64,000 nucleotides of DNA from Escherichia coli (GTDB taxonomy: Bacteria > Pseudomonadota > Gammaproteobacteria > Enterobacterales > Enterobacteriaceae): assembly GCF_044647545.1 (NCBI RefSeq), contig NZ_CP172818.1. One strand, written 5' to 3'. Positions 31,911 through 32,477 of the stretch are shown piece by piece. The notes beneath the pieces are model-generated. The model searched no databases. It was given only the letters and a program-made list of their open reading frames with translations, and was not told where the DNA came from. A program made the position numbers and the translations under genes. Each line of letters starts with the position of its first letter. Position 1 is the stretch's first letter.

Positions 31911-32477
31911 TATTTGTCCTTAAATCATTAAGAGTTATAATATAAACACTGACATAAAATTAATATATATTATGCCCGATATTTATAGTTAGCCATTGAA
32001 CATATACACTCCAATATAATCATAGAATGTAAACAAGTATTCTCTGGTGTGTCTGTATGTTGGTCTTATCTATAAAAAAACTCAATTTAGTAATACTTAA
32101 ACACTTTATGTAGATTTTATTAATTAATACATCTACAAAATACTTTCACCACTTCCCAACAAAAAAACATGCGAATTATCAACAAAAAAACAAACTATTA
32201 TAATCAACAAAAATGAATTGCTTATAAAGCACACTAAAAAAAATTATAATGACCTTACCATCATTTATTGCTAAAATTTAATATTAATTAAACAAAAATA
32301 TATATTCAAGACACAAACATTACTTCTTTATTTTATTACGGATCATAATGGGAAAAATAATAACTACGAGAATTATTAAATATTAACAAACATTTCAAGA
32401 CAAGAGAAAAGAATGGAAAAAGATTGTATGACGGAGAAACTGCCCGGTGTACGCGCACGTAACCGGGCATTGATTGC
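31911..32477. promoter_or_regulatory. Extremely AT-rich ~570-bp region upstream of yfcV (probable silenced fimbrial promoter)
   Basis: Long AT-rich tract with A-runs and repeated atcaacaaaaa motifs between yfcV and sixA. Confidence 0.5.

Follow-up and report, generated by a model that had tools for sequence, protein, structure and literature searches.

The 567-bp spacer between sixA and yfcV is most probably a cis-regulatory region of the yfc chaperone-usher fimbrial operon that acts mainly as a platform for silencing by H-NS and StpA. This reading draws on the position, base composition, and promoter-like site density of the tract and on the absence of alternative elements, all of which were established here in a 64-kb window (the whole stretch of Escherichia coli DNA analyzed), and on the H-NS/StpA occupancy (K-12 spacer and CFT073 yfcV) and the TosR or BolA induction that the literature reports for relatives. 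An H-NS target at this locus is already documented in genome-wide data sets of K-12 and CFT073, and the tract is an ordinary member of that kind. The minus-strand gene order is fadJ (33166..35310), sixA, and yfcV, and the boundaries of the tract coincide exactly with those of the complete sixA-yfcV intergenic region. The operon, named here yfcV-U-S-R-Q-P-O, begins with yfcV, which is followed on the same strand by the genes for the usher, the chaperone, and the minor subunits. The spacer thus immediately precedes the operon's first gene, as expected of the control region of a silenced fimbrial operon. Yfc is one of the core, cryptic chaperone-usher fimbriae (PMC3559732). The features referred to below are as follows.

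31911..32477, no strand: yfcV-sixA spacer, 567 bp, GC 26%; probable regulatory and silencing region of the yfc operon.
31344..31910, minus strand: yfcV, major fimbrial subunit, 188 aa; B2/F-type form with 69% identity to K-12 YfcV.
31917..31921, minus strand: Shine-Dalgarno sequence AAGGA, 7 nt before the yfcV ATG, within the sole ∼40 to 90 bp that can be aligned between spacer types.
32478..32963, minus strand: sixA, conserved upstream neighbor, codirectional with yfcV.
32441..32469, minus strand: presumed terminator of sixA, a hairpin past the stop codon with a weak U-tail (−18.8 kcal/mol, z −3.55).
32074..32243, plus strand: central A-run block (A7 at 32074, A7 at 32161, A7 at 32184, A5 at 32209, A8 at 32236).
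32178-32188 and 32203-32213, plus strand: two exact copies of ATCAACAAAAA, 25 bp apart, reading TTTTTGTTGAT on the yfcV sense strand.
32281..32309, minus strand: best-scoring sense sigma-70-like site, TTGAAT-17-TAATAT, 370 nt upstream of the ATG; candidate from a position weight matrix (PWM).
32293..32421, no strand: anomalous distal patch of ∼130 bp with 22 differences, mostly 1-nt indels, from all other copies.

The hairpin past the sixA stop codon was not called by a terminator scan, owing to its poor T-run; it is presumed to terminate sixA, and the sixA-proximal 40 bp form an element separate from the rest of the spacer. The fadJ-sixA segment is 100% identical to that of ST648-like strains, e.g., FDAARGOS_497.

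The base composition of the tract bears out the description, in an earlier note on this DNA, of a roughly 570-bp AT-rich stretch upstream of yfcV. The GC content of the spacer is 26.1% (23.1% without the presumed sixA terminator) versus 49.2% for the window; the 567-bp frame of lowest GC content in the 64 kb starts at 31873, overlapping the spacer, and 200-bp frames go down to 20 to 21%. A/T-only runs of at least 10 nt occur at 17.6 per kb in the spacer and at 1.36 per kb elsewhere in the window (13-fold), whereas TpA steps reach 13.1 per 100 nt versus 4.9 (2.7-fold). AT content, long A/T-only runs, and TpA steps are thus those of an H-NS/StpA-silenced region. The A-runs to which the earlier note drew attention were also found: the spacer contains eight runs of at least 5 A, all on the plus strand and hence T-runs on the yfcV sense strand, and the density of A/T runs of this length is 14.1 per kb, versus 4.1 per kb windowwide. 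On the plus strand, 32131-32330 consists of 49% A and only 4% G. Core A-runs in the central block are spaced by 22 to 28 bp, and those at 32074, 32184, and 32236 range from A6 to A8 among strains with the same spacer type. The latter three are mutational hot spots, which also shift the frames of small open reading frames (ORFs). The next AT-richest stretches of the window (GC 30 to 33%) are found at 38.8-40.0 kb, a variable region of hypothetical genes after fadL, and at 52.8-53.1 kb, the emrK-evgA spacer; both are likely further targets of the H-NS type.

Repeated motifs of the ATCAACAAAAA type had been described as well, and the repetition holds only in part, as two exact and two loose copies that do not make up an array. 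Perfect copies of ATCAACAAAAA are limited, windowwide, to the pair at 32178 and 32203, which is kept in the CFT073, FDAARGOS_497, and ST131-like spacers. A degenerate third copy, CAACAAAAAAA, lies at 32157, and a looser fourth one lies at 32066-32094. When one mismatch was allowed, the window yielded 10 matches, versus 2.6 expected, a number reached by none of 100 shuffles. The AT-richness of the spacer is thus far above chance, whereas its short repeats are only modestly so, given the composition. The proposal that the DNA is curved was not borne out by AA/TT phasing at 10 to 11.5 bp, a proxy for curvature, which was not significant in the tract (33% of Markov simulations equaled the power); phased A-tracts are not obligatory for H-NS silencing.

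Promoter-like sites crowd the spacer. A scan with the consensus promoter placed 7 of the 26 matches of a 20-kb region inside the 567 bp, six of them antisense. On either strand, sigma-70 sites scored with an approximate PWM built for this analysis were 6 to 10 times as dense in the spacer as elsewhere in the window, and those of at least 6 bits amounted to 28 sense and 26 antisense. In the terms of the Ozoline group (Shavkunov/Panyukov/Ozoline), such crowding defines a "promoter island." Dense promoter-like starts on both strands over at least 300 bp, the mark of these islands, were found here with scoring that differs algorithmically from PlatProm. The K-12 islands, as a class, are reported to be regions of RNA polymerase binding with little productive transcription. 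The site at 32281..32309 is the best-scoring sense candidate, and further candidate sense-strand sites lie 260 to 470 nt upstream of the yfcV ATG. The −35/−10 spacing of the best-scoring candidate is 17 nt here and 19 nt in every other strain. All of these sites are candidates, with none singled out as the promoter.

Published data on the locus support the earlier note's proposal of an H-NS target upstream of a cryptic chaperone-usher operon. In K-12, the spacer between yfcV(−) and sixA(−) is promoter island 2453647_489 (Panyukov and Ozoline 2013, PMC3661553, Table 1), flagged "K," i.e., H-NS bound in the chromatin immunoprecipitation (ChIP) data of Kahramanoglou (MG1655) and Oshima (W3110) (PMC3661553). 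This ChIP evidence refers to a spacer that, beyond ∼90 bp, cannot be aligned with the one studied here. The K-12 spacer also carries an RpoD-holoenzyme SELEX peak with an "HNS" mark and a proposed promoter, TTGAAA-17-TATAGT (Shimada 2014, PMC3946193). We mapped this promoter to 10031-10059 (minus strand) of the K-12 comparison sequence L002, that is, to K-12-specific sequence, and it is therefore not transferable to the present spacer. Closer to this spacer type, ChIP-seq of CFT073 lists c2884 (yfcV, 567 nt) with H-NS and StpA values of 0.14 and 0.12, respectively, above a cutoff of 0.07 (PMC9765446, Data set S1E and Text S1); these are per-gene averages over yfcV rather than a peak call on the spacer, and 0.14 is moderate on the 0-to-1 scale. 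The neighbors c2883 and c2885 are missing from the CFT073 list of H-NS-bound genes (PMC9765446), which fits a local H-NS patch centered on the spacer. Regulators have also been reported to act on this gene. Overproduction of TosR in CFT073 raised yfcV expression by log2 5.2, or about 36-fold (PMC5956150). This protein belongs to the PapB family; it is predicted to antagonize H-NS and Lrp and to have AT-rich DNA as its target. In K-12, yfcV was upregulated upon BolA overproduction (PMC4337573). Secondary statements citing Korea et al. 2010 describe the cryptic K-12 chaperone-usher operons as repressed by H-NS, and derepression in hns mutants has been shown directly for the CFT073 sister operons F9 (PMC3966885) and yad (PMC13245861).

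Taken with the composition, these data suggest how the tract may work. Its long A/T-only, TpA-rich runs would recruit H-NS/StpA, which would nucleate in this copy and oligomerize across the ∼520-bp AT-rich stretch, reaching shortly into yfcV. Long-range spreading of H-NS is unlikely, since the body of the yfc operon has a normal GC content (52 to 63%). The same AT composition would yield the crowd of promoter-like sites on both strands, where RNA polymerase might bind and yet be held from productive transcription. H-NS would thereby keep the operon cryptic under laboratory conditions. Before yfc could be expressed, this silencing would have to be countered by regulators that bind AT-rich DNA; TosR, of the PapB family, would be one of these in uropathogenic strains, and its effect on this spacer may be direct.

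Comparison of genomes revealed at least three E. coli spacer types that are mutually unalignable and uniformly AT-rich (GC 26%, 29%, and 32%). The type found here (558 to 567 bp, GC 26%) occurs in 1226 of 5426 complete genomes, and its carriers include CFT073, Nissle 1917, and ST131-like and ST648-like strains. The K-12 type (680 bp, GC 32%) occurs in about 3072 to 3529 genomes, and the O157 type is 645 bp long with a GC content of 29%. In other Escherichia species, the spacers measure 645 to 690 bp, with 24 to 40% GC per 100 bp. Divergence between spacer types begins immediately past the sixA stop codon, and just ∼40 to 90 bp beside the yfcV ATG can be aligned with the K-12 type, the O157-type gene cluster, and the spacers of other species. 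Strains of the B2/F type, whatever their phylogroup, differ very little in this sequence; outside the divergent patch, the CFT073 spacer is identical to this one save for 5 single-base differences. Composition is thus conserved and sequence is not, the signature expected of a silencer that reads composition. The maintenance of AT-richness across the three spacer types and the other Escherichia species argues for selection on composition. In one genome of the K-12 type (NZ_CP068041.1), the yfcV-sixA spacer is interrupted by IS1A, in keeping with the attraction of insertion sequence elements by AT-rich, H-NS-bound DNA.

The tract might instead be a passive junction spacer, compositionally drifted at the margin of a fimbrial cassette that recombines, with an ordinary weak promoter and incidental binding of H-NS that has no consequence for regulation. 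The lack of alignable sequence between types would then mean that no sequence-specific element is kept beyond the ∼40 to 90 bp beside the ATG, and the setting is suitable, as the sixA-yfcN locus is known for alternative pi-type fimbrial clusters (PMC3032704) and the operon is itself a mosaic here. Two motif searches also fit passivity. The high-affinity H-NS 10-mer TCGATAAATT, a frequent but nonobligatory feature, is absent from 31911-32477 at up to 2 mismatches, and the tract contains no site for the integration host factor (IHF) consensus WATCAANNNNTTR, although the motif contains ATCAA. A passive spacer would nonetheless hardly explain why extreme AT-richness has been kept independently in all spacer types and species examined while the B2/F-type tract is nearly invariant among phylogroups, and H-NS/StpA occupancy and strong TosR-dependent induction have been reported for the locus. 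We therefore consider passivity unlikely and the silencer platform the better account.

Readings in which the tract is a phase-variation switch or harbors a hidden gene fared worse. Phase variation is common among fimbrial operons, and an ON/OFF device could be invertible (fimS-like), methylation dependent (Dam/Lrp, pap-like), or based on slipped-strand mispairing at homopolymers, for which the A6-to-A8 variation of three A-runs between strains and the palindromic 10-mer AATATATATT, present twice at a distance of 335 bp, might speak. Nevertheless, a composition like this one yields AT palindromes of that length by chance, and A7 to A8 is short for contingency loci. A fimS-type element was discarded because palindromes of AT were all that could be found, the locus has no recombinase gene, and genomes are collinear (1204 of them over at least 80% of the query), with no inverted form among the full-length matches listed, each of which is a single piece. 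The pap-type variant would call for papI/papB-like genes and for two GATC sites about 100 bp apart in Lrp sites. Such genes are absent from the locus, and so is a GATC pair: GATC does not occur in the CFT073 spacer, and the only one in this spacer falls inside the suspect patch at 32293-32421. The switch element that the earlier note had considered thus found no counterpart in an invertible segment or a GATC pair, and a phase switch is very improbable. A hidden small RNA, structured 5′ leader, or small protein could be invoked because 567 bp is long for a spacer, the sense strand has ORFs of 33 and 44 codons, and transcripts from the candidate promoters 260 to 470 nt before the ATG would begin with a long leader. 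Against such a gene, the covariance models of Rfam 15 gave no match at an E value of ≤1 on either strand of 31000-33500, and the predicted leader of ∼380 nt folds no better than shuffles (z −0.10). The two ORFs were rejected as conserved genes, since indels in homopolymers and in the patch alter their frame and length between strains, and none of the 1226 complete RefSeq genomes carrying this spacer has a feature annotated in it. A gene concealed in the tract is accordingly just as hard to credit as a switch.

The silencer reading places the tract beside several characterized regions. It occupies the same genomic place as K-12 promoter island 2453647_489, between sixA and the first yfc gene, and shares with it AT-richness, T-runs on the sense strand, dense promoter-like sites, and probably H-NS association, which for the present type comes from the CFT073 data. 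The two differ in size and composition (567 bp and 26% GC here versus 680 bp and 32% GC in K-12, with ∼90 bp alignable beside the ATG), the SELEX promoter is not conserved here, and the usher gene yfcU (28612..31269) is intact, encoding 885 aa, whereas it is a pseudogene in the K-12 MG1655 annotation. With the yad (PMC13245861) and F9 (PMC3966885) operons of CFT073, the locus shares an AT-rich upstream region, a poorly expressed fimbrial operon, and H-NS binding; derepression in an hns mutant is documented for yad and F9, whereas this yfc type is documented by ChIP occupancy over yfcV and TosR induction only. The fimS and pap regions are likewise AT-rich, noncoding control regions that lie upstream of a major fimbrial subunit gene and are subject to H-NS. 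Here, however, there are no recombinase genes, no GATC pair, and no inverted form among the full-length matches listed from the 1204 collinear genomes. The tract probably works like a plain silencer, unlike the fimS and pap switches.

The B2/F-type yfcV reportedly serves to mark uropathogenic E. coli (Spurbeck 2012). The locus conforms to the known silencing by H-NS/StpA of the AT-rich control regions of cryptic chaperone-usher fimbriae, and a check against published H-NS ChIP data, as the earlier note advised, agreed with it (a bound spacer in K-12 and above-cutoff values for H-NS and StpA over CFT073 yfcV). The control region of the B2/F type, 567 bp long and almost without variation, is a type of its own that has composition, not sequence, in common with the K-12 and O157 types, and the set of spacer types would show neatly how selection in nature can act on base composition and not on motifs. 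The value of the case is modest.

The distal patch at 32293-32421 departs from this invariance. Relative to FDAARGOS_497, its 22 changes comprise 10 missing bases, 2 G-to-A substitutions, and 11 extra bases, and its flanks are 99.9 to 100% identical to that strain. None of these changes is shared by 1225 complete genomes (best identity, 87.4% over 32270-32450) or by 10 further assemblies encoding an identical YfcV, and CFT073, an ST131-like strain, and an ST80 strain display the standard state at all 22 sites. Taken together, some 1260 other copies of the type lack the 22 derived differences. Searches of metagenomes with the patch sequence returned 0 matches, whereas an anchored pattern retrieved 26 contigs, 20 with the standard sequence and 6 with a 5-bp deletion. 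No donor was found in other Escherichia species, Pseudocitrobacter, and the others searched. A small inversion, which the near-zero net change in length might suggest, was rejected in view of the collinear sequence and its scattered indels. The paired 9-mers TTCAAGACA and ACAAACATT were likewise dismissed as a sign of templated change, since by our own estimate 567 bp of this composition should contain about five 9-mer repeats by chance.

Several of the patch changes shorten homopolymers, and isolated homopolymer deletions also occur elsewhere in this DNA, among them the loss of a C from CC at 31949 and of an A from A6 at 21766. The patch is probably an error of the source record, whose consensus would be under-polished where the DNA is so rich in AT. 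That it is genuine, i.e., a private, locally hyperdiverged or imported segment in a silencer otherwise invariant across more than 1200 genomes, seems rather doubtful. If it were real, the spacer of the best distal promoter-like site would have changed from 19 to 17 nt and the sole GATC of the tract would have been created, which could mean lineage-specific retuning, possibly desilencing, of Yfc fimbrial expression. The A6-to-A5 change at 21766 relative to FDAARGOS_497 frameshifts the 5′ end of the conserved gene yfcA (ORF 21016..21759, minus strand), leaving a 247-aa ORF from an internal ATG where 269 aa are expected; either yfcA is genuinely a pseudogene here or the homopolymer was misread in sequencing.

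Elsewhere in the window, the downstream end of the operon has a different affinity. The yfcO/P/Q end (25421-27674) is ∼94% K-12-like and has no match in the ST648-like strains, to which identity is otherwise 99.9 to 100%; in FDAARGOS_497, the smrB-yfcO interval instead holds two genes, one for an AAA-ATPase and one hypothetical. A K-12-like end beside an ST648-like remainder indicates that the yfc operon is a recombination mosaic. On the other side of the spacer, no complete RefSeq E. coli genome reaches 80% coverage of 39300-46500. That segment includes, at 42504-46342, a CPS-53/KpLE1-like prophage remnant (yfdQ, yfdR, yfdN, and yfdP) that adjoins a tRNA-Arg gene, is missing from FDAARGOS_497, and shares ∼95% identity with K-12.
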